Shown here one piece after another: positions 99 through 62,453 of a stretch of DNA of 64,000 nucleotides (the first letter of the stretch is position 1; each line of letters starts with the position of its first letter). A model generated the notes under the pieces. That model was given only the letters and a program-made list of their open reading frames with translations. It made no database searches and was not told where the DNA came from. Position numbers and translations under genes: made by a program. The stretch comes from a phage. Location: the NCBI GenBank assembly GCA_027218345.1, contig GCA_027218345.1_3950.1, one strand, 5' to 3'.

Positions 99-174
99 TG
101 GAGAATCCGAGGGGACTCGAACCCTTGTAAACCTGTCTTGCAGACAGGTACATATCCATTTCTGTCACGGATTC
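99..174 (-). tRNA. tRNA-Cys (anticodon GCA)
   Basis: Minus-strand cloverleaf by hand: encoded CCA, T-loop TTCGAGT, anticodon loop CTGCAAG, acceptor cggattc/gaatccg, discriminator U. Confidence 0.6.
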
Positions 175-178
175 AAAT

Positions 179-271
179 TGGAGGAAGATACCAGACTTGA
201 ACTGGTACACCGATTTCTCAGCTACTGGCAGTTTAGCAAACTGCTCCCTTACCTTTTAGGGTTAATCTTCC
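179..271 (-). tRNA. tRNA-Ser (anticodon GCU), class II
   Basis: 93 nt, encoded CCA, perfect acceptor ggaagat/atcttcc, T-arm ACCAG-TTCAAGT-CTGGT, anticodon loop TTGCTAA, long variable arm. Confidence 0.6.
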
Positions 272-272
272 A

Positions 273-1007
273 TTATTTCTGTAATGCGTTCTTCATTTCT
301 GGTGTTGCAATAGCATCAATTACACCAGTTTTACAAGCATCATCAAACCAGTCTGGTAAGATACCTGCTAAGAACCCATTGATATTCGTTTTAAGGTACT
401 CTGCAATAAGGGCAGCTTCTTCTTCAATCATCTGCACAACTTCATCTGCATAAGCTGTAATCTTTGAAATACCTTCATTAATCTTACTGACAGCTTGGTT
501 AGCTAAATCAGAAACAGTATCAAGACCCTTGTCAATAGCGTCTTGTAAGTCACTTAACACACCATTAACACTATCTAGTGTACTGTTAATCATGTCAATA
601 GCTTTTTGACCATACTCTGTAGCAACACCCATGATACCACTGAATGGTGTACAACCAACTTGTTCTCCTGCTGCACCCATAACATTGGAGTATCCTTTTG
701 CTACCTGCATACGTGATGAAAACTCATCAATAGACTTTTGACCGTAGTCTGTTAGGGTCTTAGTAGTTGCTGTAGTGCTTGTAAGGCTTGTTGTAAAGCT
801 GTTTAGGAGGACTGTTGTAAGTCCAGCAGCAACAAGTTTCTCCTTCATTGTAGGGTCTGTTACAGAGCTAATAGAGCTTACAAGTGATGTAGAGGCAGCT
901 ACGGTTCCGCCGAGAACTGCTGCACCAGTAATAAGTGGGTTAGAAAACCCTTTACCGGTTTTTAAGAGATTAAAAATCTCCTTACCTTGTCCTGTCATCT
1001 CTTTCAT
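273..1007 (-). CDS. hypothetical Ser/Thr/Ala-rich protein inside the tRNA cluster
   Basis: ORF with ATG (MKEMTGQ) preceded by AAGGTG; upstream part of the listed ORF overlaps a tRNA and is dropped. Confidence 0.45.
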   Translation of the reverse strand: MKEMTGQGKEIFNLLKTGKGFSNPLITGAAVLGGTVAASTSLVSSISSVTDPTMKEKLVAAGLTTVLLNSFTTSLTSTTATTKTLTDYGQKSIDEFSSRMQVAKGYSNVMGAAGEQVGCTPFSGIMGVATEYGQKAIDMINSTLDSVNGVLSDLQDAIDKGLDTVSDLANQAVSKINEGISKITAYADEVVQMIEEEAALIAEYLKTNINGFLAGILPDWFDDACKTGVIDAIATPEMKNALQK

Positions 1008-1025
1008 TAAGCACCTTTGAAATTG

Positions 1026-1100
1026 GTAGTCCAGTGGGATTTGAACCCTCTTCTCATGTTTTTCAGACACGCGCTTTAACCATATAAGCTACTTGGACTA
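1026..1100 (-). tRNA. tRNA, probable Phe (anticodon GAA); CCA not encoded
   Basis: Perfect 7-bp acceptor tagtcca/tggacta, T-loop TTCAAAT, anticodon loop CTGAAAA; D-region irregular. Confidence 0.45.
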
Positions 1101-1105
1101 TAAAT

Positions 1106-1181
1106 TGGGGTGACCTACGGGATTTGAACCCGTATAGACCATGTTCACAGCATGGGTCATTACCATTTATGATAAGGCCAC
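1106..1181 (-). tRNA. tRNA-His (anticodon GUG)
   Basis: Encoded CCA, discriminator C, T-arm ACGGG-TTCAAAT-CCCGT, D-stem tcat/atga, anticodon stem ccatg/catgg with loop CTGTGAA. Confidence 0.65.
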
Positions 1182-1212
1182 ATTTAAGGACTCTCGTAAG
1201 AACCCTTAGAAG

Positions 1213-1288
1213 TGGCAGCGGCATAAGGATTTGAACCTTAATAAGACAGCTTCAGAGACTGCTGCATTGCCAGTTATGCTATACCGCT
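1213..1288 (-). tRNA. tRNA-Gln (anticodon CUG)
   Basis: Encoded CCA, discriminator G, T-arm TAAGG-TTCAAAT-CCTTA, D-stem gcat/atgc, anticodon loop CTCTGAA. Confidence 0.5.
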
Positions 1289-1293
1289 AAATT

Positions 1294-1372
1294 TGGTACT
1301 CCATATCGGATTCGAACCGATACATAACACAGATTTTAAGTCTGGCCTCTCTGCCAATTGGAGTAATGGAGC
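1294..1372 (-). tRNA. tRNA, class-I shape, anticodon probably UAA (Leu-type)
   Basis: Encoded CCA, discriminator A, T-arm ATCGG-TTCGAAT-CCGAT, D-loop AATTGGCAGA, anticodon loop CTTAAAA; short variable region. Confidence 0.4.
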
Positions 1373-1374
1373 AT

Positions 1375-1450
1375 TGGCGGGGGATGTTGGAATTGAACCA
1401 ACTTCTTCGATTTCAAAGACCGAGGTTTTAACCTTGTAAACTAATCCCCT
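1375..1450 (-). tRNA. tRNA-Gln (anticodon UUG)
   Basis: Encoded CCA, discriminator G, T-arm GTTGG-TTCAATT-CCAAC, D-stem gttt/aaac, anticodon stem tcggt/atcga with loop CTTTGAA. Confidence 0.55.
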
Positions 1451-1458
1451 TTAAATCT

Positions 1459-2016
1459 TTACTTTCTCAGTGGATGAATAAAGAATGCCAACATAACTCT
1501 TTCCCTTGAGAATGCTCTTTCTTCTGGGACAACACTTTTTAGTTTCCATCCAATATAAATTCTCCAGTAAAATTGTTTACCAAAGATTTTAATTGATGGG
1601 ATAAAAGCGAATAATCCCCAAGCATTCCTGTTCCACATTAGGAGATAACCAGTCTGATTATCTTCAGGGTTAGAACTTACGTTGATATTACCTTTCCACT
1701 TAGTAACATCTTTTACATCTCTTCCTAACACATGGTAAGAGAAGTTATAAGCTTTGTTTCTCCAGAGCCATCCAACTCTCTGCAAATAGACACCTAGCTT
1801 ACCAATCTTTCTAATCTTAGCCCATCTTTTAACGTGGCCTTCATCACCATCAATTGGGTTATCATATGTCTCCATCCATCTGAATCCAAAAGGGAGATGT
1901 CCTTTCTTCTCACTGTAGAATGGAACTACGAAAGGTGCTAAGATGACTGCTAGGGTTGCTGCAAATGGTTCTAGTAAAGCTAGGAAAATCCATGAAGCAT
2001 ACTTCAAATATCTCAT
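1459..2016 (-). CDS. hypothetical protein with N-terminal hydrophobic segment
   Basis: 185-aa ORF between tRNA genes; N-terminal stretch of about 25 hydrophobic residues. Confidence 0.45.
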   Translation of the reverse strand: MRYLKYASWIFLALLEPFAATLAVILAPFVVPFYSEKKGHLPFGFRWMETYDNPIDGDEGHVKRWAKIRKIGKLGVYLQRVGWLWRNKAYNFSYHVLGRDVKDVTKWKGNINVSSNPEDNQTGYLLMWNRNAWGLFAFIPSIKIFGKQFYWRIYIGWKLKSVVPEERAFSRERVMLAFFIHPLRK

Positions 2017-2035
2017 CTAAATAGCCTCTTAAAAT

Positions 2036-2113
2036 TGGTGTTCCAAGACGGATTCGAACCGTCACTAATACAAGGTTTGAGCTTGCATCCTCTGCCAATT
2101 GGGATACTGGAAC
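2036..2113 (-). tRNA. tRNA, class-I shape, anticodon CAA (Leu-type)
   Basis: Encoded CCA, discriminator A, T-arm GACGG-TTCGAAT-CCGTC, acceptor gttccag/ttggaac, D-loop AATTGGCAGA, anticodon stem gcaag/cttgt with loop CTCAAAC, 6-nt variable region. Confidence 0.45.
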
Positions 2114-2114
2114 A

Positions 2115-2189
2115 TGGTACTCACTAAAGGACTTGAACCTTTTTCTTCATCTTGTAAGGGTGATGTTTTACCATATAAACTAAGCGAGT
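2115..2189 (-). tRNA. tRNA-Val (anticodon UAC)
   Basis: Encoded CCA, T-arm AAAGG-TTCAAGT-CCTTT, D-stem gttt/aaac, anticodon loop CTTACAA. Confidence 0.55.
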
Positions 2190-2284
2190 GTGAAAGAGGT
2201 CTGAAGTTGTGCCGCTAACTCAACTCCGTGGAATTTGTTACGGTCTTCAGTTGACACCAGCGGTCTTTCACTTGACCTCTGAAT

Positions 2285-2361
2285 TGGTGCTGCTCACAGG
2301 ACTCGAACCTGCATTTCCATCCTTACAAGGGATGTGTAATAGCCAATTATACGAAAGCAGC
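2285..2361 (-). tRNA. tRNA-Thr (anticodon UGU)
   Basis: Encoded CCA, T-loop TTCGAGT, anticodon stem catcc/ggatg perfect, loop CTTGTAA. Confidence 0.6.
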
Positions 2362-2367
2362 TTTATT

Positions 2368-2442
2368 TGGAGCATCCAGAGGGAATCGAACCCTCAACCT
2401 CAGTTTGGAAGACTGTAATTTTCCCGTTTAAACTATGGATGC
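2368..2442 (-). tRNA. tRNA-Gly (anticodon UCC)
   Basis: Encoded CCA, discriminator U, perfect acceptor gcatcca/tggatgc, T-arm GAGGG-TTCGATT-CCCTC, anticodon loop CTTCCAA. Confidence 0.6.
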
Positions 2443-2448
2443 ACTAAT

Positions 2449-2524
2449 TGGTGGAGAAGCAGGGAATTGAACCCTGTACTTAAGTTTGCAAAACTTATGT
2501 TTTAACCATGTAAACTACATCCCC
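2449..2524 (-). tRNA. tRNA-Ala (anticodon UGC)
   Basis: Encoded CCA, G3:U70 wobble in acceptor, D-stem gttt/aaac, perfect anticodon stem taagt/actta, loop TTTGCAA. Confidence 0.65.
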
Positions 2525-2530
2525 AATGTC

Positions 2531-2606
2531 TGGTACAGGTGGAGGGAATTGAACCCATCGTCTTACTGATTAAGAGTCAGCCGCATAACCATTTTGCTAC
2601 ACCTGC
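2531..2606 (-). tRNA. tRNA-Lys (anticodon CUU)
   Basis: Encoded CCA, discriminator A, T-loop TTCAATT, anticodon loop CTCTTAA; T-stem has mismatches. Confidence 0.5.
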
Positions 2607-2613
2607 ATTAATT

Positions 2614-2690
2614 TGGTACACCTAGAGAGATTCGAACTCACACTGAGCAGATTCTAAGTCTGCTGCCTCTACCAGTTGGGCTATAGGTGC
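2614..2690 (-). tRNA. tRNA, class-I shape, anticodon UAG (Leu-type)
   Basis: Encoded CCA, discriminator A, D-loop AACTGGTAGA, perfect anticodon stem gcaga/tctgc, loop CTTAGAA, 5-nt variable region. Confidence 0.5.
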
Positions 2691-2948
2691 ATTAAATCTT
2701 TTTAGAGAACTTCTAAGAACCTAAGCAACAAGGTTCCACAACAAGCTGTAATAACCTTAGAAGCCCTCTAAAAAGACCTAAAAAGGTCTTTACATAGTCT
2801 TGTTTAATCCGGTGACTAGAACCTTTGGAGAGCTTGATATTATCTCTTCTCCGTGACACCTACTAGGTGCTTTATCAGTGTGTACGACAATACACGAGGG
2901 ATACCAAAGCAACATCCGAATGAAGCTTGGCTTTAAAATCTTATTAGG

Positions 2949-3036
2949 CGGTAAGTAAAGGAGTCGAACCCTCACCGTATCTCTACAGTGGCAACTGTTT
3001 TCAAGACAGTTTGGCTACCATTAGCCGCTACCTACC
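2949..3036 (-). tRNA. tRNA-Ser (anticodon UGA), class II; CCA not encoded
   Basis: 88 nt, discriminator G, anticodon stem actgt/acagt with loop CTTGAAA, long variable arm, T-loop TTCGACT. Confidence 0.55.
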
Positions 3037-3049
3037 CCTAATAAGACTT

Positions 3050-3132
3050 TGGCATGGGACGGAGGAGTTGAACCCCTTTGAAACGGTGTTGGAAGCCGTT
3101 GCTCATGTCTTAGAGTCTTAACATCGTCCCAC
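3050..3132 (-). tRNA. tRNA, non-canonical 83 nt, anticodon possibly CCA (Trp)
   Basis: Encoded CCA, discriminator G, acceptor gtgggac/gtcccat, T-loop TTCAACT; D region enlarged, fold uncertain. Confidence 0.4.
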
Positions 3133-3275
3133 ACTATAATTCGAAGCTTACCGTATTATCTCAACACTGTAAAGCCCCTTCTCAGATTATTTACATGTTC
3201 TGGAAAACATGAGATACAGACCACCTCCCTACAGGAAGACCCGCTTAGGTCGTCTAAGTAATCTGCTAACTAAAT

Positions 3276-3357
3276 TGGTCGAGGCGGCAGGACTCGAACC
3301 CGCATACTCCACTTACTCGGTTAACGGCTGTTTAGAAGACAGCTGAGATACGCCCCG
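3276..3357 (-). tRNA. tRNA-Arg-like (anticodon UCU), non-canonical architecture
   Basis: Encoded CCA, acceptor cggggcg/cgcctcg, T-arm GCGGG-TTCGAGT-CCTGC, stem-loop gctgt-CTTCTAA-acagc; no normal D-arm found and about 23 nt before the T-arm. Confidence 0.4.
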
Positions 3358-3561
3358 TAATTATCTTTAAAGACTCTCTTAGAAAGCCCTTAAAGATGCC
3401 CACCTTATTAATCATACCGTGGGCGAGTACGCCAAATTCTTTGATGAGGGGTTGGAAGACCTCACTGGTGTTTAGCCTATCAAGCTACTGCCAGAAAAAC
3501 ATTGTCGTTTGCATTTATTTTAAATTTGCAAAATAGACGCTACGCAACGAAAACTAAGGTT

Positions 3562-3590
3562 ACTATAAAGTAGTCACATCTCAGTGTCAA
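3562..3590 (-). promoter_or_regulatory. sigma70-like promoter candidate inside the tRNA cluster
   Basis: On minus strand TTGACA, 17 nt, TATAGT. Confidence 0.35.
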
Positions 3591-3605
3591 CAACTTTATT
3601 GAAAT

Positions 3606-3683
3606 TGGTACTGTGAGAAGGATTCGAACCTTCTGCCTTTCGGTTATCAGCCGAATGCACATCCATATGTGCTAACCCACAAT
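3606..3683 (-). tRNA. tRNA-Ile (anticodon GAU)
   Basis: Encoded CCA, perfect T-arm GAAGG-TTCGAAT-CCTTC, D-arm gcac-ATATGGAT-gtgc, anticodon stem ttcgg/ccgaa with loop CTGATAA; acceptor pairs only with a 4-nt connector. Confidence 0.5.
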
Positions 3684-3760
3684 TGGAGGTTCAGATGGGA
3701 TTCAAACCCACATTCATAGGGCTTATGAGACCCTTGCATTACCTTATCTGCGACTGAACC
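3684..3760 (-). tRNA. tRNA-Met or Ile2 (anticodon CAU)
   Basis: Encoded CCA, perfect acceptor ggttcag/ctgaacc, T-loop TTTGAAT, anticodon stem agggt/gccct with loop CTCATAA. Confidence 0.55.
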
Positions 3761-3764
3761 ATTT

Positions 3765-3840
3765 TGGTAGAAGTGGAGGGATTCGAACCCATCGCCTTTC
3801 AGATTAAAAGTCTGCCGCATCACCATTCTGCTACACTTCC
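3765..3840 (-). tRNA. tRNA-Lys (anticodon UUU)
   Basis: Encoded CCA, discriminator A, T-loop TTCGAAT, anticodon loop CTTTTAA. Confidence 0.55.
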
Positions 3841-3846
3841 ATTAAA

Positions 3847-3986
3847 TTATCTTTGTAGATAAGCTACCCAGACTTGCTTAAGGTCTGTAGCGATGTGCCT
3901 TTTTGGGTTTAAATCTAGAATTTACCCTTTCACCCTTTGTGGTCGCATACTCACAGGTAAGCTTAATAACTTATCTACAAAGATAA
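3847..3986. repeat. pair of identical 16-bp palindromic hairpins in inverted orientation flanking 108 bp
   Basis: TTATCTTTGTAGATAA at 3847-3862 and its reverse complement at 3971-3986. Confidence 0.6.
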
Positions 3987-4268
3987 TTACCAGACCGTTG
4001 TTTATCATCTTAAGTGCTACCATTACACCAACTCGACATCTGCCGAGTGAAGGAATCGAACCTTCGCCTTTTCTTTACCGAGAAATAGATTGTTTAAGTT
4101 TTGCTGTAAACGGTCTTCTGTAAATTTGTTGAGCCAGACCAAGTTTTAAATTTTTCAAAATTAAATTGGCTTGAAATTTTAAGTAACTTGCTGTATTTGG
4201 TCTTCTGCTCCTTTAAAGGATGCTCGTAAGAACCCTTTAAGGGAGGGGCTAAATAGCCCTCTCAAAAT

Positions 4269-4343
4269 TGGCGAGGTGTGCGAGAATCGAACTCGCGGCT
4301 CAGGAGAGACAATCCAGTATTTTACCCGTCTAAACTAACACCC
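4269..4343 (-). tRNA. tRNA, probable Asp (anticodon GUC)
   Basis: Encoded CCA, discriminator G, perfect T-arm GCGAG-TTCGATT-CTCGC, D-stem gttt/aaat, anticodon loop TTGTCTC with one stem mismatch. Confidence 0.45.
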
Positions 4344-4350
4344 CAAAACC

Positions 4351-4779
4351 CTATGTACCATTTCTTAAGTACTTTTCTTTGCGTCTTGCTGAATTATAGT
4401 ATTTACGCCCTTCAGCATTTTTAGAAAGCCTACAAGCCTCACACCTGCATCCTCTTCTATAACCAGAAACTGTACCATGTTTAATTGGTGTGTACTTCCT
4501 TTCACCAATCTGTTTTGGTCTTGTTGCTTTCGAGTTACAGTGTATGTGGCTATATGAGATGTTATCTAGTGAAAAGAAAAGCTCTTTTGCATTTTCACTA
4601 TGTCTCCACGGAGTCTTATGCTCAATAGAGAAATCATCCCTAGTCATTTCTTTCCCGCACTGAAAACATCTATTTTGATTTGTTTTACATATAAAATCAA
4701 ATAGTAAATCTTTTACTAGCCTGTTTTGTGCAGTTCCTAAACTCATACCAAGCTGTGATTTGTATACTTCATCTCTCAT
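4351..4779 (-). CDS. HNH homing endonuclease
   Basis: HNH/zinc motifs CFQCGKE...IEHKTPW...SHIHCN and C-terminal CxC cluster; embedded in tRNA cluster; internal ATG start preferred over TTG. Confidence 0.65.
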   Translation of the reverse strand: MRDEVYKSQLGMSLGTAQNRLVKDLLFDFICKTNQNRCFQCGKEMTRDDFSIEHKTPWRHSENAKELFFSLDNISYSHIHCNSKATRPKQIGERKYTPIKHGTVSGYRRGCRCEACRLSKNAEGRKYYNSARRKEKYLRNGT

Positions 4780-4802
4780 GACTAAGTATCTCAATAAGTG
4801 TT

Positions 4803-4890
4803 TGGTGTGCCGTGTAGGAGTCGAACCTACCGAGTCTCAATGACAAGGGATTTACAGTCCCCACCGCTACCATCTACGGGATAACGACAC
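4803..4890 (-). tRNA. tRNA-Tyr (anticodon GUA), class II
   Basis: 88 nt, encoded CCA, perfect T-arm GTAGG-TTCGACT-CCTAC, anticodon stem-loop gggga-CTGTAAA-tccct, long variable arm. Confidence 0.6.
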
Positions 4891-4899
4891 ATTTAAATT

Positions 4900-4976
4900 T
4901 GGCGGTTAGTCAGGGATTCGAACCCTGTGCCATTCGCTTAACAGGCGACCGCACATACCTTATGTGCTTCCTAACC
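4900..4976 (-). tRNA. tRNA-Asn (anticodon GUU)
   Basis: Encoded CCA, discriminator G, perfect T-arm CAGGG-TTCGAAT-CCCTG, D-stem gcac/gtgc, anticodon loop CTGTTAA. Confidence 0.55.
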
Positions 4977-5053
4977 TTAATACATTGCCAGACCGTGTTT
5001 TTTCTTTTATCCGCAAAAAGTATTTTGTTGCTGAATACGGTCTTCTGCAAAAT

Positions 5054-5130
5054 TGGAGGCGGGTGCAGGAGTCGAACCTGCCGATACCATGCTAATGAGA
5101 CATGTGAGACGCCCTTTCTCTATACCCGCA
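5054..5130 (-). tRNA. tRNA-Met or Ile2 (anticodon CAU), second copy
   Basis: Encoded CCA, perfect T-arm GCAGG-TTCGACT-CCTGC, anticodon stem catgt/gcatg with loop CTCATTA; T1:C72 mismatch. Confidence 0.5.
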
Positions 5131-5221
5131 ATTCTTAATGACCAGACCAAATCTCTTCTTTGTCCGATTTACCTTCAGATGAATAAGATTAAGTTTGCTG
5201 TAATTGGTCTTCTGTCAAAAC

Positions 5222-5299
5222 TGGCGTTCCAGAAGGGATTTGAACCCTCAAATATCCACTTTGAAAGAGTGGTGACTTTACCATTTTGTCTACTGGAAC
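5222..5299 (-). tRNA. tRNA-Glu (anticodon UUC)
   Basis: Encoded CCA, discriminator G, perfect acceptor gttccag/ctggaac, T-loop TTCAAAT, perfect anticodon stem ccact/agtgg, loop CTTTCAA. Confidence 0.55.
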
Positions 5300-5306
5300 A
5301 TTAATT

Positions 5307-5382
5307 TGGTCTCTGTTGGAGGACTTGAACCTCCGGCCTTACCGCCCCAAACGGAACGCTCTACCAAGCTGAGCTAAACAGA
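5307..5382 (-). tRNA. tRNA-Pro (anticodon UGG)
   Basis: Encoded CCA, perfect acceptor ctctgtt/aacagag, D-arm gctc-AGCTTGGTA-gagc, T-arm GGAGG-TTCAAGT-CCTCC, anticodon loop TTTGGGG. Confidence 0.6.
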
Positions 5383-5548
5383 GATAAACTTTTCAAACTC
5401 TATGTAACCACTTTAACATTATTTTTTAGTGGTTGTCAAGAACTTTTTAAAATATTTTTCAGTATCTTAGAAAAGCTCTCATTTCGTTTCTATGTAGAAC
5501 ATATTAAAGGGTATCAAACACATTGTCAATACCCTTTTTTAAAACTTT

Positions 5549-6964
5549 TTACCAGATGTAACGGTCAATCATTACTGCTTTGAGCATTACGCTGATTGGG
5601 TCAAACTTCTCACCACCAAGCAGAGCTTTTAAAGTGGCTGGAGAGAAACCAGATACCATTGCTACACCGTTATCCTTAACAGACACTTCGCAAGTGCCAT
5701 TACGGTTTGCTAAGTACCAGAATACCAGTTGTGGCATCTCATATCCAGCTTTTTTGTACTTACTCTGAATTGCTTCAAAGTTTGTACGACCGTTAGCTCC
5801 ATCAACCTGATTGAACTCCATATCAGAGAAGATGATAAGCTTACTTGGCATATCTTTCTGAGTCAAGTTGTTTCTCTTACCTGTCTCAAGGATGCGGTCA
5901 AAAGCTGCTTGTAAGTTAGTTGAACCGTATTCAACATGTCGCATTACCTGACGGTGACGGTTCTTTAAATCGCCACTCAGTTCGATGAAATGAGGGTTTG
6001 TTGAATAAACCATTAACTCGTTCTTAAAGCAACCTGTATTGCGTTCTGCTACATACAAGGCAAGTGATACACCAATATCAAGGGCAGTAATTGAGCCAAA
6101 ATTCACCCAAGACATTGAACTTGAAACATCAGACATACATAGAATGTTTTCACCCTCTGCCATCCAGTTTGGTAGTGCTTTCCACTGCTCATTAGCAACA
6201 TCTGCATTACCATACTTAACAGATTTAATCACATCGTATGGGTAAACAGCACCAGCATTAATCTTAGTCTCACCTTTTGATAAAGACTCAATGTAAGCTT
6301 TGTAGCGTTCTCCATCTTTACGGTTAAACAGTTTTTGGTAACGTGCAGCAGCAAGTGAAGGAATCTTACTGTAGTCAATCTTACCAAACTCATTAGCAGA
6401 GATTTTTTGCTCAACCGTATCAGATAGTGCAGACAACAGTGTGCGGTACTCTTTCTCACTTAAGTTTGCAAACTTACAGAAACGTTTTACAAACTGCTTA
6501 TGACGTGGTTTGACTCGTGGTAACCACTTAGCTGCTAAACCTGCTGTTGCAGGGTCTAGTAATGCTGCTTCTAAATGTTTGAAGGCATCTGTCTCGAAAC
6601 GAGTACCTACGAAGATTTTGAAGTCATCAAAACGACCAAGTTCTGCAATCTTATCCATAATGCGAAGAACCTGTGTAGGCTCTAAAACTTTATCTTCAAT
6701 CGCTTGAAGCAAAACTGTTCTGAAGGCTTTACGCTCACCCATGCCTTCTCGTACATCTCGCATATGCAGTAAAATACGAACTGCAACATCAACATCCTCA
6801 CGCAAAGCTTTGTAGAACAGGTCTGGTAAGATTTCTACATTGCTACGGCTTGAACCAGCAGCTTTGTAAAAGTCTACAAGAGCAGACATTGATGAAGTAT
6901 GGTTTACAGCACCATTTTCAGTTCGACCTGCATGAAGGTGCGCATGTTTAAATAACTCGCTCAT
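5549..6964 (-). CDS. vWA-domain protein with MIDAS motif (DUF2828-like)
   Basis: 471-aa ORF; DxSxS motif (MSDVSSSM) followed by vWA-like hydrophobic strands. Confidence 0.6.
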   Translation of the reverse strand: MSELFKHAHLHAGRTENGAVNHTSSMSALVDFYKAAGSSRSNVEILPDLFYKALREDVDVAVRILLHMRDVREGMGERKAFRTVLLQAIEDKVLEPTQVLRIMDKIAELGRFDDFKIFVGTRFETDAFKHLEAALLDPATAGLAAKWLPRVKPRHKQFVKRFCKFANLSEKEYRTLLSALSDTVEQKISANEFGKIDYSKIPSLAAARYQKLFNRKDGERYKAYIESLSKGETKINAGAVYPYDVIKSVKYGNADVANEQWKALPNWMAEGENILCMSDVSSSMSWVNFGSITALDIGVSLALYVAERNTGCFKNELMVYSTNPHFIELSGDLKNRHRQVMRHVEYGSTNLQAAFDRILETGKRNNLTQKDMPSKLIIFSDMEFNQVDGANGRTNFEAIQSKYKKAGYEMPQLVFWYLANRNGTCEVSVKDNGVAMVSGFSPATLKALLGGEKFDPISVMLKAVMIDRYIW

Positions 6965-7417: not shown

Positions 7418-7644
7418 TGGTATGCCTCTTATAAGACCTCTTAAAAGGCTTTTAAGATAAAAGATAGATATCCAGAAAGATATCTGTTTAAATAGCCTTT
7501 TTAGAGGAACCTTTTAAGTTATCTTCTAAGTATTTAGAAGCCTACACCTTGTCAAGTACTTTGTCAACAACTTTTTTAACTTGCAATAGTTCTTGACTTG
7601 TTGTATGGATTACTGTACCATCTTACTTAAGCTGTAGGTCTGCC
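7418..7644. promoter_or_regulatory. divergent promoter region between minus and plus gene blocks
   Basis: Intergenic, AT-rich, multiple TTGACA/TTGTCA hexamers including CACCTTGTCAAGTACTTTGTCAAC. Confidence 0.4.
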
Positions 7645-7808
7645 TTGTTCTACAAAGGAGACTTAATGAGAAAATCAAATAACCCGAAGAAAGGTAAAAA
7701 TACCAATCACTGTAAGGAATCAAAAAGGGTAGAGTTACTCTACTATTCATCCTCTGAAATTGGTCTGTACCTGTTCTTTCAAAATTACAGAAGACAAGAG
7801 GATTATCT

Positions 7809-8042
7809 ATGTGTAGTTCCCAATTAGAAATCGCAGATATTATAGATTTATATAAAACTGCAAAGAGTCATGGCTATATAACCTCAATTGGAAAGAATAG
7901 TCACTACGATGCTTTGACTGGAATGTATTTCAGGGCAATGGCTCAATCTAGTGAACAACACTTAATGGTTTCTTCCAGTGAGTTTACTTCGTTTCTCTAT
8001 TGCAGCAAAATTATAAATCGCAGGAGAACTGAAAAATGTTAA
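7809..8042 (+). CDS. hypothetical protein
   Basis: 77-aa ORF, first of plus-strand block. Confidence 0.3.
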   Translation: MCSSQLEIADIIDLYKTAKSHGYITSIGKNSHYDALTGMYFRAMAQSSEQHLMVSSSEFTSFLYCSKIINRRRTEKC

Positions 8043-14061: not shown

Positions 14062-14623
14062 TGGTGTGATAGATATGGAAAAAGATAACTTAAAAGAAGT
14101 TGAAGGTAACTATCTAGTACTTGACTGGAATGATATTCGGGAAGCACTATCTAAAGAAAGCCTTGACATACTAGAGCAACTTATCTTCTCAGTACGTCAT
14201 ATCAGAGAAGTTAGAAATGGTAAAGAGCCACTTGAAGGAATCTTTGTAGAGAAGTCTTATCCGTTCTATGAAGACACTTTACAGAAAGTTAAGATGTACT
14301 TTAGACAGAAGAACCGTAAAGTGGTCACTATGGTCTCTCTTGGTGGACAGAGTATGTCTGTGATGGAAGATATCAACCCTAAGAGACCAAGTAAAGGTGT
14401 TTGTATAAAAATCACAGGTCATGAAGAGTATATCTCAGTGGATGACTTTAGTGCATTCTGTAATGGTTCTGCTGTCTTTAATGGGTTTCACTATGATATC
14501 CGAGTGTACCCAATCAAGGGAGATGATATCATGATGCAGGTATTCGATAACAACAACGGATTTACTCATTTTTATCAGACAACCAAGTCATCACTGAAGA
14601 CAGTTCTGGAAACACTGATTTAA
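14030..14623 (+). CDS. hypothetical protein (start uncertain)
   Basis: 197-aa ORF, last gene of plus block, followed by terminator. Confidence 0.45.
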   Translation: MQYQITKFYDNGVIDMEKDNLKEVEGNYLVLDWNDIREALSKESLDILEQLIFSVRHIREVRNGKEPLEGIFVEKSYPFYEDTLQKVKMYFRQKNRKVVTMVSLGGQSMSVMEDINPKRPSKGVCIKITGHEEYISVDDFSAFCNGSAVFNGFHYDIRVYPIKGDDIMMQVFDNNNGFTHFYQTTKSSLKTVLETLI

Positions 14624-14632
14624 AATATCTTA

Positions 14633-14665
14633 AGAGCCTCCTTAATTGGGGGCTTTTTAATTTTT
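14633..14665 (+). terminator. candidate terminator at end of plus-strand block
   Basis: GAGCCTCC...GGGGGCT hairpin then TTTTTAATTTTTAT. Confidence 0.45.
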
Positions 14666-16249
14666 ATAAAATTTATCGGTTGTCCCAACCTCTGGGTCAC
14701 CATCATATGTGAATAAAATATCTACCCTTCTTAACAACCTTCTTAAGCTTACTCTCTATATATATATAGTTATATAGTACTATATAGTATCTTAGTATCT
14801 ATCTAGTGGTCTTAATAGACCCTCTGTATAGCCCTTCTAAATAGCCCTCTAACAAACCTTCTTAACAACCTATACAATCACCTTAACCATCCCTCTACAC
14901 ACTCTTAGAAGCCCCTATACACCTCTTAATCTCTAGGTCAGCTATGTTACCCTCTATAGGTGTTCACTAGGAAATACTAAGCCTCTATATAGACTGTTTT
15001 AACAAACTTAACAGGAATATCTTTACAGACCTTATCTCACAAGGTCTAACACGGTACTAACAAGGTATCTTATAAGCCTGTTTCTACCTGTATTTTTAAA
15101 AGACTGTATAGGTAATTATTCAGAATTTTAAAATTTTTATAAAATAGAGTTGTCAAGTCATTTTTTAGGGTCTTTGAAGGAACTCAAAAATATCTGTAGA
15201 AGATGTATATCTGCTTGGTAGCCCTTAACAGTTCCTTAACACCCCCTTTGCAAAATTTTAAAATATCATTAACAATCTCTTAACAGTTCTCACATCTTCT
15301 TAACAACTCTTCAAAGGTCTTAACAGATTCTTAACAGAACTAACAAGAGCGTAACAGTTTCTTAACAGTTGATACATAGCCTTTACAGATGCTTAACAGA
15401 TGACTAACAAGAGCTATATAGTTAATTTTTAAGGGTTATTTTGTAAAGATAATTAACAAGTTCCTAACAAGTGTTTAATCTTTTTAACAAGCTATTAACA
15501 TGGTCACTATCTCTTCCCTTATTGTTCCCTTCCTCTCTTAGTGACCCTTTAAACATACCTCTTAAAAGCTCTCTATAGCTCTGTATAGCCCCTTTTAAAC
15601 CTCTTCCTAGTATCTACCCCTCAACTGTATGGATAGCTCTTTATAGGGCTTTACAGGGGCTTTAAAGGCTATGCCAAAGGTTCTTACAAGGCTTTTACAT
15701 GGTTGTAACAGAGATTTAACAAGGGGCTAACAAGTATAACTATGTAGGGTTTGTTAAGAAATTGTTAAGAAAATGTTAAGGGGGCTAGCATTTACGTAAC
15801 TTTTAAGCTATCTATCACGTAACTCTATAGTTTCTTTTACGTAACTTTGAAGTAACTTCATAGCCCCTTTTTAGTAGTTCACAAGGAACTAACGAGATAA
15901 TAAAGCTTATAACCTTATAAGATTCTTTTAAGCCTCTATAAAGCCCTGTAAAGAGCTTTTTAAGGTGAGTTAATGCAATCCATTAAGTTAGGTTGATAAG
16001 GCTGTTATAGGGCTTTGTAGAGCGTTTAAGGGGTTGCCCTTCCCTTTCGGGTTATGGGCTTGTATTTAAGTTGATTTGATAAAAGGCTATAGAGTAGACT
16101 ATAGAGTTATTACTTTTTAAGGTCTGATAAAGTTCTGACTTGTTAGGTGGGTTTTAAGATTCTGGAAAGGGATTTGATAGACGTAAAAAAGCCCCATTTA
16201 AGGGGCTGTAAAGGTATCTGGGGCTATTCAGCCCCCGTTAATTGACAAT
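14666..16249. repeat. ORF-free repeat-dense tract (iteron-like arrays)
   Basis: Clusters of TTAACAG/CTAACAAG, ACGTAACT and GTTAAG direct repeats, TATATAG-rich segment, several GC hairpins; no ORF of 60 aa or more. Confidence 0.6.
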
Positions 16250-16780
16250 TTACAGATTTTTGATTGTCTCGTCAATATCTTTTTCAATATCTTTTAAAGT
16301 TTTTTCTAAGTTCTTGATATTGAAAGTTAAGCCTTCACCGATGGTTTTAGCGTAACCGCTAGGACGTGAGTTATATAGTTCGATTTCTTCCACTTCGAAG
16401 AGACTAACCAACTCACCGCTTACATTGTAAGCCATTGAAACAGTGTTTACAGGGGCTTTATAAAACTTGTTCAATGACTTGAGAGAACGTTCATAAGCCA
16501 TTTTATAACTGTTTAAAAGGCTTTTAACGTGTTTGTGAACGTTTTTACACTCATCTAAGTAAAGCCCTAAAAACATCGGGAGAAGTTCCGCTACAGCTTG
16601 CATAAAATGAGAGGCTGCAACGGTTGCAACATTACGACGATGAACGTAATAAGCCCCTTTTTCTGATTTGGTGATTGTTGCAAAGTGTACACCATTACAA
16701 CGAAATTCGTAGGTATCTTTAACAGGCTTAGACATTACAGCATTTGAGCGGATGTAATTGATGGCTTTGAACTTGTTCAT
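16250..16780 (-). CDS. hypothetical protein
   Basis: 176-aa ORF preceded by conserved type-A cassette. Confidence 0.5.
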   Translation of the reverse strand: MNKFKAINYIRSNAVMSKPVKDTYEFRCNGVHFATITKSEKGAYYVHRRNVATVAASHFMQAVAELLPMFLGLYLDECKNVHKHVKSLLNSYKMAYERSLKSLNKFYKAPVNTVSMAYNVSGELVSLFEVEEIELYNSRPSGYAKTIGEGLTFNIKNLEKTLKDIEKDIDETIKNL

Positions 16781-51911: not shown

Positions 51912-52168
51912 GTAAGCCTCTTTTAAGTAACTATTAAGTTTTAATCTTTTATCTTAACGTATTCTATACGTTATACTTTAAAGCTTTTTAAAAGCTATTA
52001 AATAATCTTTTAAGAATTTTAAAGTATCTGTATAGTTAAACTGTTAAGTAACCTTTTAAGTAAAAACCCACTTCGCAAAGATTAACACCTTGTCAAGTAC
52101 ATTGTCAACTTGCTTTTTATAATTTTTTGCAGTAATGTATGTGGTTAATGATTTTAGAGGGAGTAAAA
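51912..52168. promoter_or_regulatory. divergent promoter region upstream of DNA polymerase and the minus block
   Basis: Contains CACCTTGTCAAGTACATTGTCAAC, near-identical to the motif at 7556, plus TATAAT. Confidence 0.4.
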
Positions 52169-61770: not shown

Positions 61771-61771
61771 A

Positions 61772-61815
61772 AACAAAAAAGGCTCCCGTAAAAAGGAGCC
61801 TTAAAATTTTATTTT
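61772..61815. terminator. bidirectional terminator between thyA and the convergent minus-strand genes
   Basis: Hairpin GGCTCCCGTAAAAAGGAGCC flanked by an A run upstream and T run downstream. Confidence 0.6.
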
Positions 61816-62180
61816 TCAGTATTCTTTGTGTTCTTCTCAGTAATAGCTTGGAGGGCTGATACTGATTGAGCCAGATTATTCACACTGTCAGAGAATTTAT
61901 CAAGAGTTTTGGTAAGTTTTGCGTTTTCACCCTTAACATTCTCTAACTGAACTTTCTGGTTCTCCATCCCTAGCTGAATCAGTCTCATGTCAGACTGTAA
62001 ATCACGAATAGCTGAATAGTTACTTTTGGAATAATTATCTAGCTGCTGTAACTTTGTTGTGACAGACACTTCTTGCTTACCACTTGAAACTTGCATAGTG
62101 GTATACATCCCAATAACACTAAAAATACCAACTACAATTGCACCAATATTATTTTTAAAAGCTTCCTCTAGCCACTTCAT
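61809..62180 (-). CDS. membrane-anchored coiled-coil protein
   Basis: N-terminal TM helix IGAIVVGIFSVIGMY then helical region. Confidence 0.45.
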   Translation of the reverse strand: MKWLEEAFKNNIGAIVVGIFSVIGMYTTMQVSSGKQEVSVTTKLQQLDNYSKSNYSAIRDLQSDMRLIQLGMENQKVQLENVKGENAKLTKTLDKFSDSVNNLAQSVSALQAITEKNTKNTEK

Positions 62181-62374
62181 TTATTCTCCCCCTTAAAAGC
62201 TTTTTCTAAGTTATCTACGAACTCATCATCAATAGGTGTGTCTGTTTTACTCGCAAGGTATCTTGCAAGCCTAAAGAACACTTTCTCAATCATGTATTCA
62301 CTTAGAAGGGATAAAATGAGTTTCCAGAAGAAGCTACCTAGATTTTTTAGAAGAATTGCTAGGATTGTAGGCAT
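62177..62374 (-). CDS. small membrane protein
   Basis: 65 aa with N-terminal hydrophobic helix. Confidence 0.4.
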   Translation of the reverse strand: MPTILAILLKNLGSFFWKLILSLLSEYMIEKVFFRLARYLASKTDTPIDDEFVDNLEKAFKGENK

Positions 62375-62453
62375 TTAATCACCTCATCAGCCAAGATGGT
62401 GAGAATACCCATAAAGAATATTAACACCATCTTAACAATCAGTCAACAAGGGA

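Follow-up and report, generated by a model that had tools for sequence, protein, structure and literature searches.

A gene-free, repeat-packed tract in a Felix O1-like phage corresponds to the direct terminal repeat region of its relatives

What does a phage keep in 1.6 kb of DNA that carries no gene and is crowded with short repeats? The question is raised by a tract at positions 14624-16249 of a 64,000-nucleotide stretch of phage DNA (NCBI GenBank assembly GCA_027218345.1, contig GCA_027218345.1_3950.1), which was analysed at its full length and is called the window here. A preliminary description, made from the letters of the window, had reported an open reading frame (ORF)-free region packed with direct repeats where two gene blocks converge, and had suggested a replication origin, a packaging site or a dense protein-binding array. 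The region itself is as described: the longest ORF is 35 aa, a stop codon occurs about every 11 codons in all six frames, the + strand block stops at 14623 and the - strand block at 16250, and the TATATAG, TTAACAG-type, GTTAAG and ACGTAACT repeats that had been listed were all found again in the same places. The window belongs to Felixounavirus, the Felix O1-like myoviruses; its core genes (the primase-helicase, for example) share 96-97% identity with those of Felixounavirus genomes, and its gene content includes 24 tRNA genes, rIIA/rIIB, ribonucleotide reductases, DNA polymerase and ligase. The tract matches 257 phage records, mostly at 80-90% identity, nearly all of them Felixounavirus or related Ounavirinae. 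Its counterpart in Felix O1 (AF320576, 12316-13911) is a gap without an annotated gene, and Suspvirus and Mooglevirus genomes have a gene-free gap of ~1.6-1.7 kb between the corresponding convergent genes. No account of the tract is given in the genome papers on Felix O1 and wV8, and the passages retrieved from the Bas63 essentiality preprint include none on it. We propose that it is probably the genome-end region, or concatemer junction, of the phage, holding a direct terminal repeat (DTR) with a helically phased array for end recognition and cutting.

The DTR can be placed by homology. Escherichia phage vB_EcoM-Pr103Blw (MW481326) has an annotated "short direct terminal repeat" of 581 bp that is identical at both ends of its record, and the full length of this repeat, when reverse-complemented, aligns with a 569-bp segment of the window, 15217-15785. 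For Pr103Blw, a DTR packaging mode with two 581-bp repeats was obtained by PhageTerm (PMC8303462). Exact repeats at both record ends are present not only in Pr103Blw (USA) but also in SPJ41 (China; 613 bp) and SeKF_63 (Canada; 613 bp), and in the orientation of the window all three DTRs, like the window segment, start with GGTAGCCC and end with TTAAGGGGGC. The unique sequences flanking the DTR are also the same in these three phages and the window. The three DTRs are homologous to the window segment (87-92% identity), with the same flanking arms and the same neighbouring genes, and the window DTR is the shorter by 1 to 4 repeat units. In addition, records D4 and pEP20 start exactly at these boundaries, and SLAM_phiST56 matches from its position 51. 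DTRs have been reported with PhageTerm for further Felixounavirus isolates (PMC11737134), and Whichard et al. inferred "short terminal repeats" of Felix O1 from genome size (PMC3185647).

The exact mapping of the boundaries to 15217 and 15785 makes the tract the probable genome-end region, or concatemer junction, and the packaging-site option of the preliminary description gains support from this end-to-end match. Among the features expected of a short-DTR genome end, a fixed-boundary repeat at both ends is seen in the homologues (three independent records), and a non-coding junction with arrays of short motifs is seen in the window itself. There is no second copy of the 569-bp segment elsewhere in the window, as expected of an assembly in which the two terminal copies were merged into one; judging from the relatives, each end of the virion DNA would carry one.

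To follow these features beyond the window, we aligned the tract from nine genomes of three genera (Felixounavirus, Suspvirus and Mooglevirus). The sequences at the two boundaries are invariant or nearly so in all three genera. Immediately outside the first boundary stands TGTATATCTGCTT, a candidate determinant of the cleavage site, and immediately outside the second stands TAGCATTTACGTAAC, which includes an 8-bp palindrome, TTACGTAA, at 15792-15799. Reading inward from either boundary, one meets TAGCCC(CC)TTAACA-N4-CTTAACA; the two virion ends are alike in inverted orientation besides forming a direct repeat.

The DTR is filled with copies of a single short motif with the consensus yCTTAACAr. 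Counting both strands, TAACA[AG] occurs 27 times in 14600-16300 and 110 times in the other 62 kb, a ~9-fold enrichment, and the same 27 sites compare with five in the other 7.8 kb of crudely delimited non-coding segments; CTAACAAG is ~190-fold and CTTAACAG ~45-fold over-represented in the tract. Within the DTR, 19 cores lie on the + strand (15226-15728) and three on the - strand at the far boundary, the motif changing strand at ~15740. Sixteen of the + strand TAACA cores fall in 15226-15496. Neighbouring cores are mostly 11 nt apart (10 of 18 intervals). The inverted units, with GTTAAG at 15753, 15764 and 15775, are nearly invariant across genera. Taken together, the 19 + strand sites fit best to an overall period of 10.41 bp, a periodicity equalled in one of 20,000 random placements and held across 500 bp through mixed spacings of 9, 11, 20 and 31 nt; the units therefore share one face of the B-form helix.

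The tract also contains a second repeat family: the palindromic box CTnTAnAG occurs there at 19 sites (~11-fold enriched), which come in pairs or triplets 10-12 nt apart within the DTR and in both of its arms. Three such boxes make up each half of a 33-nt inverted pair (15635-15667 and 15925-15957, 88% identity), the second half of which is outside the DTR; the DTR boundary and the palindrome TTACGTAA fall between the halves, ~130-150 nt from each, and two arrays of palindromic CTnTAnAG boxes are the best reading of the pair. The first copy of ACGTAACT is kept in all genera, and the second and third are variable. Repeats that extend beyond one 11-nt unit are 60-80% alike, and each is made of two or more units. 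An ungapped dyad scan placed the top centres of the whole window within the tract (15285-15296 and 15796-15823), recurring every 5.5 or 22 nt; we interpret these peaks as a side effect of the phasing of units in which the palindromes TTAA and ACGT occur, and claim neither a cruciform nor a hairpin at the DTR boundary. The CTnTAnAG family, the strand switch and the conservation of the tract in more than 250 records had escaped the preliminary description, as had the terminator at 14632-14657. The features of the tract are collected in Table 1.

Table 1. Positions of the terminal repeat, its motif arrays and other features of the tract, in window coordinates
Feature	Coordinates	Strand	Remarks
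Unique non-coding arm next to the DTR	14624-15216		No ORF; mean column conservation 0.84 (9 genomes, 3 genera)
Rho-independent terminator, end of + strand block	14632-14657	+	Terminator scan; 10-bp stem, then T run
Single consensus DnaA-box-like 9-mer, TTATTCACA	14708-14716	-	Perfect match to consensus TTATNCACA; conserved across genera
TATATAG-rich AT tract	14758-14810		Column conservation 0.72-0.92 across genera
Element just outside first DTR boundary, TGTATATCTGCTT	15204-15216	+	Invariant in 9 genomes of 3 genera
Direct terminal repeat, 569 bp	15217-15785		By homology to DTRs of relatives; single collapsed copy in the window
Main array, 16 yCTTAACAr units	15224-15501	+	Spacings 9, 11, 20, 31, 33 or 49 nt
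CTnTAnAG boxes in the DTR	15571-15667		At 15571, 15581, 15639, 15649 and 15660; 10-11 nt apart within clusters
Three more TAACA units	15704-15734	+	In phase with main array; cores at 15706, 15717 and 15728
Three inverted units (TGTTAAG on +, CTTAACA on -)	15751-15781	-	Directly at second DTR boundary
Element just outside second DTR boundary, TAGCATTTACGTAAC	15786-15800	+	Column conservation 0.94 around the boundary
Unique non-coding arm, other side of the DTR	15786-16249		No ORF; mean conservation 0.76
ACGTAACT, three copies	15794-15846	+	At 15794, 15817 and 15839; spacing 22-23 nt
Rho-independent terminator, end of - strand block	16190-16207	-	Terminator scan

Conservation in the alignment is concentrated on the units. 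Identity to the window over the tract is 90% within the genus and 76-80% across genera, and within this average the TAACA cores are conserved at 0.97 as compared with 0.81 for the spacers between them (Mann-Whitney p = 1e-12). The adjacent 176-aa protein is 42-49% identical between the three genera; the non-coding DNA is thus better conserved across genera than the neighbouring gene. Change within the DTR also proceeds by whole units: the indels measure 11, 21 or 22 nt, apart from a few of 1 nt, and the lengths of the DTR-equivalent segment in 48 records all fall within 2 nt of a ladder of 558, 569, 580, 591, 602, 613 and 624. Each of the nine genomes carries 18-22 units plus 3-4 inverted ones. 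Helical phasing, the excess conservation of cores over spacers and the indels of whole units also lend indirect support to the idea of a dense protein-binding array, which the tract may well be.

A more distant relative shows the same plan. Erwinia phage vB_EamM-M7 (Kolesnikvirus, HQ728263), in which the neighbouring protein is 31% identical, has an exact DTR of 444 bp in a convergent, gene-free setting, with TTAACA units that lead inward from one end, TGTTAA units that do so from the opposite end, and unit spacings of 9, 11, 20 and 22 nt. Two nucleotides beyond one DTR boundary, AGATATAC, the reverse complement of TGTATATCTGCTT, is still recognisable, and TTTACG lies outside the other boundary at a place matching TAGCATTTACGTAAC. 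The M7 DTR differs in being shorter and in having its orientations near balance (10 versus ~14 units, as against 19 versus 3 in the window). Moreover, the unique arm upstream of the M7 DTR (HQ728263, ~83829-84129) holds 13 copies of TTCTA[AC][AG] at 10-12 nt spacing, an array that was not noted in the corresponding arm of the window. For the FelixO1-like Erwinia phages of Kolesnikvirus, short DTRs have been deduced from TerL homology and PhageTerm (PMC11984208). The organisation recurs in all four Ounavirinae genera examined.

Might the repeats nevertheless have no sequence-specific function, being slippage-prone filler in a region where only the DTR boundaries and their homology matter, for the annealing of concatemers? 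Such filler would fit the copy-number changes by whole units, the DTR lengths of 558-624 bp among close relatives, by which exact length is not critical, and the lower conservation of the tract within the genus (88-90%) than of core replication genes (96-97%). It fits poorly with cores that outlast their spacers, with a motif, an orientation pattern and a similar copy number that persist from phages of E. coli and Salmonella to those of Erwinia, and with an overall 10.4-bp phase that is kept over 500 bp despite mixed spacings, and we regard it as quite unlikely.

Conservation of this kind could also reflect small proteins or a non-coding RNA encoded in the tract, which the preliminary description had named as a finding that would overturn its own view. 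Short hypothetical proteins are indeed annotated in the tract in some GenBank records, and sigma-70-like hexamer pairs occur, e.g., at 15236-15264. However, no ORF is common to the nine aligned genomes (the longest are of 26-60 aa, at differing positions and on differing strands), and promoter-like sites in the tract are at the level of shuffled sequence (8 sites versus 6.8 expected, no excess). An Rfam search of 14400-16500 at permissive E-values gave no family at gathering score, all matches being sub-threshold and the best reaching 26 bits versus a gathering score of 55. The conservation follows the 11-nt repeat units and not codons, and a coding or RNA explanation therefore appears extremely improbable to us.

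Under the replication-origin option, an initiator would bind the TTAACA units in the manner of iterons and open AT-rich DNA close by, instead of or besides any role in packaging. Many direct repeats on one helical face, a strongly conserved arrangement and the lowest GC content anywhere in the window (34.5% in the tract versus 38.8% overall) would all suit an origin, as would a single DnaA box ~40 bp from the TATATAG tract (copies at 14763, 14771 and 14781; 23% GC over 14750-14810). The likeness to the origins of lambda (ori), P1 (oriR) and theta plasmids, which have helical-phase direct repeats with an AT-rich segment nearby, stops short at several points: the repeated core measures 7-8 bp and recurs with an 11-bp period, and is not the 17-22 bp iteron of which at least three direct repeats would be expected; no initiator gene adjoins the repeats; and the array coincides with the DTR. 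Some 400 bp separate the main array from the AT tract, which falls outside the DTR. The DnaA box is alone and shows no enrichment (with up to one mismatch allowed, 24 boxes were found in the window versus 20 expected), and searches for IHF consensus sites and for Chi sites found none. A PHROG search of the eight flanking ORFs returned families of unknown function only, with no initiator or DNA-binding protein and no initiator signature. GC skew along the window tracks gene orientation, and its changes cannot locate an origin. Finally, the array matches the DTR and its boundaries exactly in four genera, which end processing explains directly and an origin does not. We found no specific support for this option and consider it unlikely. 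Elsewhere in the window, a 227-nt divergent intergenic region between the primase-helicase (-) and DNA polymerase (+) genes, 51912-52138, lies at the cumulative GC-skew minimum and is a candidate divergent promoter region or origin.

Packaging systems also offer parallels to the tract. In T7-type packaging, neighbouring genomes of a concatemer share one repeat, the terminase cuts at both boundaries, and DNA synthesis duplicates the repeat. The T7 junction (NC_001604) contains 13 CCTAAAG units, distributed over the 160-bp repeat and its surroundings, and a heptamer-packed non-coding junction is therefore a known feature of this mode of packaging; T7 and the window have in common a short DTR and a non-coding junction packed with about a dozen or more copies of one short motif. 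The motifs themselves are unrelated. In T7 the units have one orientation, mostly flank the repeat and are spaced by at least 13 nt, whereas in the window they lie inside the repeat with a 10.4-nt phase and an inverted block. The early promoters of T7 point inward from its left end, in contrast to the outward transcription of both neighbouring blocks here. T7, a podovirus, also has an identified small terminase, gp18. A plasmid with the T7 junction, a terminal repeat and an origin gets packaged (Chung and Hinkle 1990, cited in PMC13236587), and T7 maturation begins at the concatemer junction (PMC3276506).

The pac site of P1 resembles the tract in that short repeated units cluster on both sides of a terminase cut. 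The P1 units are hexamers with GATC that are regulated by Dam methylation, and P1 packages by the headful mechanism, giving permuted ends; the window has not one GATC in 64 kb and the DTR ends of its relatives are fixed, on which grounds a P1-type pac site was rejected.

The reading we favour may be set out along the lines of T7. Replication would produce head-to-tail concatemers in which neighbouring genomes share one copy of the DTR; the packaging machinery would cut at two fixed sites, 15216/15217 and 15785/15786, and DNA synthesis would duplicate the DTR, leaving a copy at both ends of each virion genome. The ~22 yCTTAACAr units on one helix face (19 plus 3 inverted) would bind a sequence-specific protein, either the recognition subunit of the terminase or an accessory factor that assembles over the DTR, and the conserved unique elements TGTATATCTGCTT and TAGCATTTACGTAAC would specify where each cut falls and allow the two to be told apart. 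We infer the binding of a protein, its membership in the packaging machinery and the cut-and-duplicate steps by analogy.

A protein might instead occupy the array for a purpose unrelated to cutting, protecting or anchoring the entering ends, controlling ejection or condensing the DNA. In T5, a repeat-rich stop signal in the terminal repeats has been proposed to control ejection. With a DTR at both ends and units running inward from both boundaries, each virion end here would start TAGCC...TTAACA...TTAACA, and both flanking blocks are transcribed outward, so that the first DNA to enter would carry no inward-reading genes. No candidate protein was found, and we hold a non-cutting binder of this kind to be quite improbable.

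Several points weigh against a packaging array as well. The window has one copy of the repeat, and the assignment of its DTR depends on 87-92% identity to relatives, together with boundaries that are the same; the termini of those relatives are mostly PhageTerm predictions rather than the result of biochemical end mapping. The 11-bp ladder is explicable by slippage between phased repeats without selection on phase. The cuts are asymmetric with respect to the shared TAGCCC, falling 2 nt before it at one boundary and inside it at the other, and a simple symmetric recognition model therefore does not fit. We know of no TTAACA-binding protein, and to our knowledge the role of the heptamer arrays in T7 is itself not settled. 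The large terminase gene (TerL) was not found in the 64-kb window and lies outside it, so there is no link between the array and a terminase. Finally, the Felix O1 analysis of Whichard et al. turned up no small terminase gene (PMC3185647).

One way of joining these observations, which we put forward tentatively as possible, is that the ~22 yCTTAACAr units over the DTR form an assembly platform in all four genera, on which a sequence-specific DNA-binding protein would take the place of the small terminase not yet recognised in Felix O1-like phages and would set both cuts by coating the repeat, the inverted units marking the far end. If this were so, DTR length would be "counted" in 11-bp units, and the array could have an additional role in replication or in the protection of ends.

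Outside the DTR, both gene blocks end in terminator-like hairpins at the tract edges, which make up ~3% of its length; the earlier statement that the region is not one of simple terminators accordingly stands for the other 97% and fails at the edges. A GC-rich hairpin and T run after a stop codon, as in intrinsic terminators, are found at both 14632-14657 and 16190-16207. The first begins 9 nt past the stop codon at 14623, and a terminator is annotated at the matching position in the record of phage Moogle. A further hairpin (16221-16237) directly follows the stop of ORF 16250-16780; it and the one at 16190-16207 are the two clear cases among the several GC hairpins reported earlier at 16020-16250, the others being weak. 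The arm at 14624-15216, which in the virion adjoins the terminal DTR copy on its inner side, at the end to which the + strand reads, has scattered TAACAA sites on the + strand only, and the opposite arm includes a poorly conserved stretch at 16124-16173.

Some further observations concern other parts of the window and other records. Two other large gene-free stretches stand at strand switches, 7418-8035 (~620 nt, divergent) and 61771-62453 (~680 nt, convergent), and neither contains the TTAACA or CTnTAnAG family. The tRNA cluster (24 genes, 99-5383, - strand) adjoins the gene of a 471-aa protein (5549-6964, - strand) that matches PHROG 850, "RNA-binding protein"; the Bas63 essentiality preprint describes a Ro60-like protein upstream of the tRNA genes of that phage, and its gene may be the equivalent of this one. 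The record of Staphylococcus phage SA1 (GU169904.1, 147 kb) includes a Felix O1-type terminal region at 135367-137023 (88% identity), which suggests a chimeric or contaminated assembly. The zero count of GATC in the window compares with 186 ± 13 in dinucleotide shuffles and 221 under a Markov model, and CCGG (ratio 0.43) and GGCC (0.60) follow as the most depleted of the other 4-bp palindromes. The Dam/MboI/Sau3AI/DpnII site seems to be avoided altogether, and the Felix O1 genome paper makes no mention of this.

Short DTR regions are familiar elements of tailed phages, and the DTRs of close relatives are already annotated in GenBank; that the gap is the genome end will be no surprise to a phage specialist. 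The records and papers on Pr103Blw, SPJ41 and SeKF_63 give the length of the repeat only and not its internal architecture, and in the papers searched we found no description of how a DTR of this group is organised. One motif per helical turn filling the DTR, the inverted block, the invariant elements outside, the 11-bp ladder and the conservation in four genera are apparently undescribed. Felix O1-type phages are widely used in the typing, biocontrol and therapy of Salmonella and E. coli, and most of the deposited genomes have been opened at arbitrary points, many leaving the 1.6 kb unannotated or with spurious small ORFs; fixing the true ends by means of two invariant sequences provides a simple rule of orientation and annotation for more than 250 genomes. 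Outside T7, it is poorly understood how short-DTR phages recognise their cut sites. The motif, its helical phasing and the natural copy-number ladder in steps of 11 bp would give an easy experimental handle on the recognition protein, and the array a direct route to this factor; interest in it is heightened by the lack of any recognised small terminase in the Felix O1-type group.

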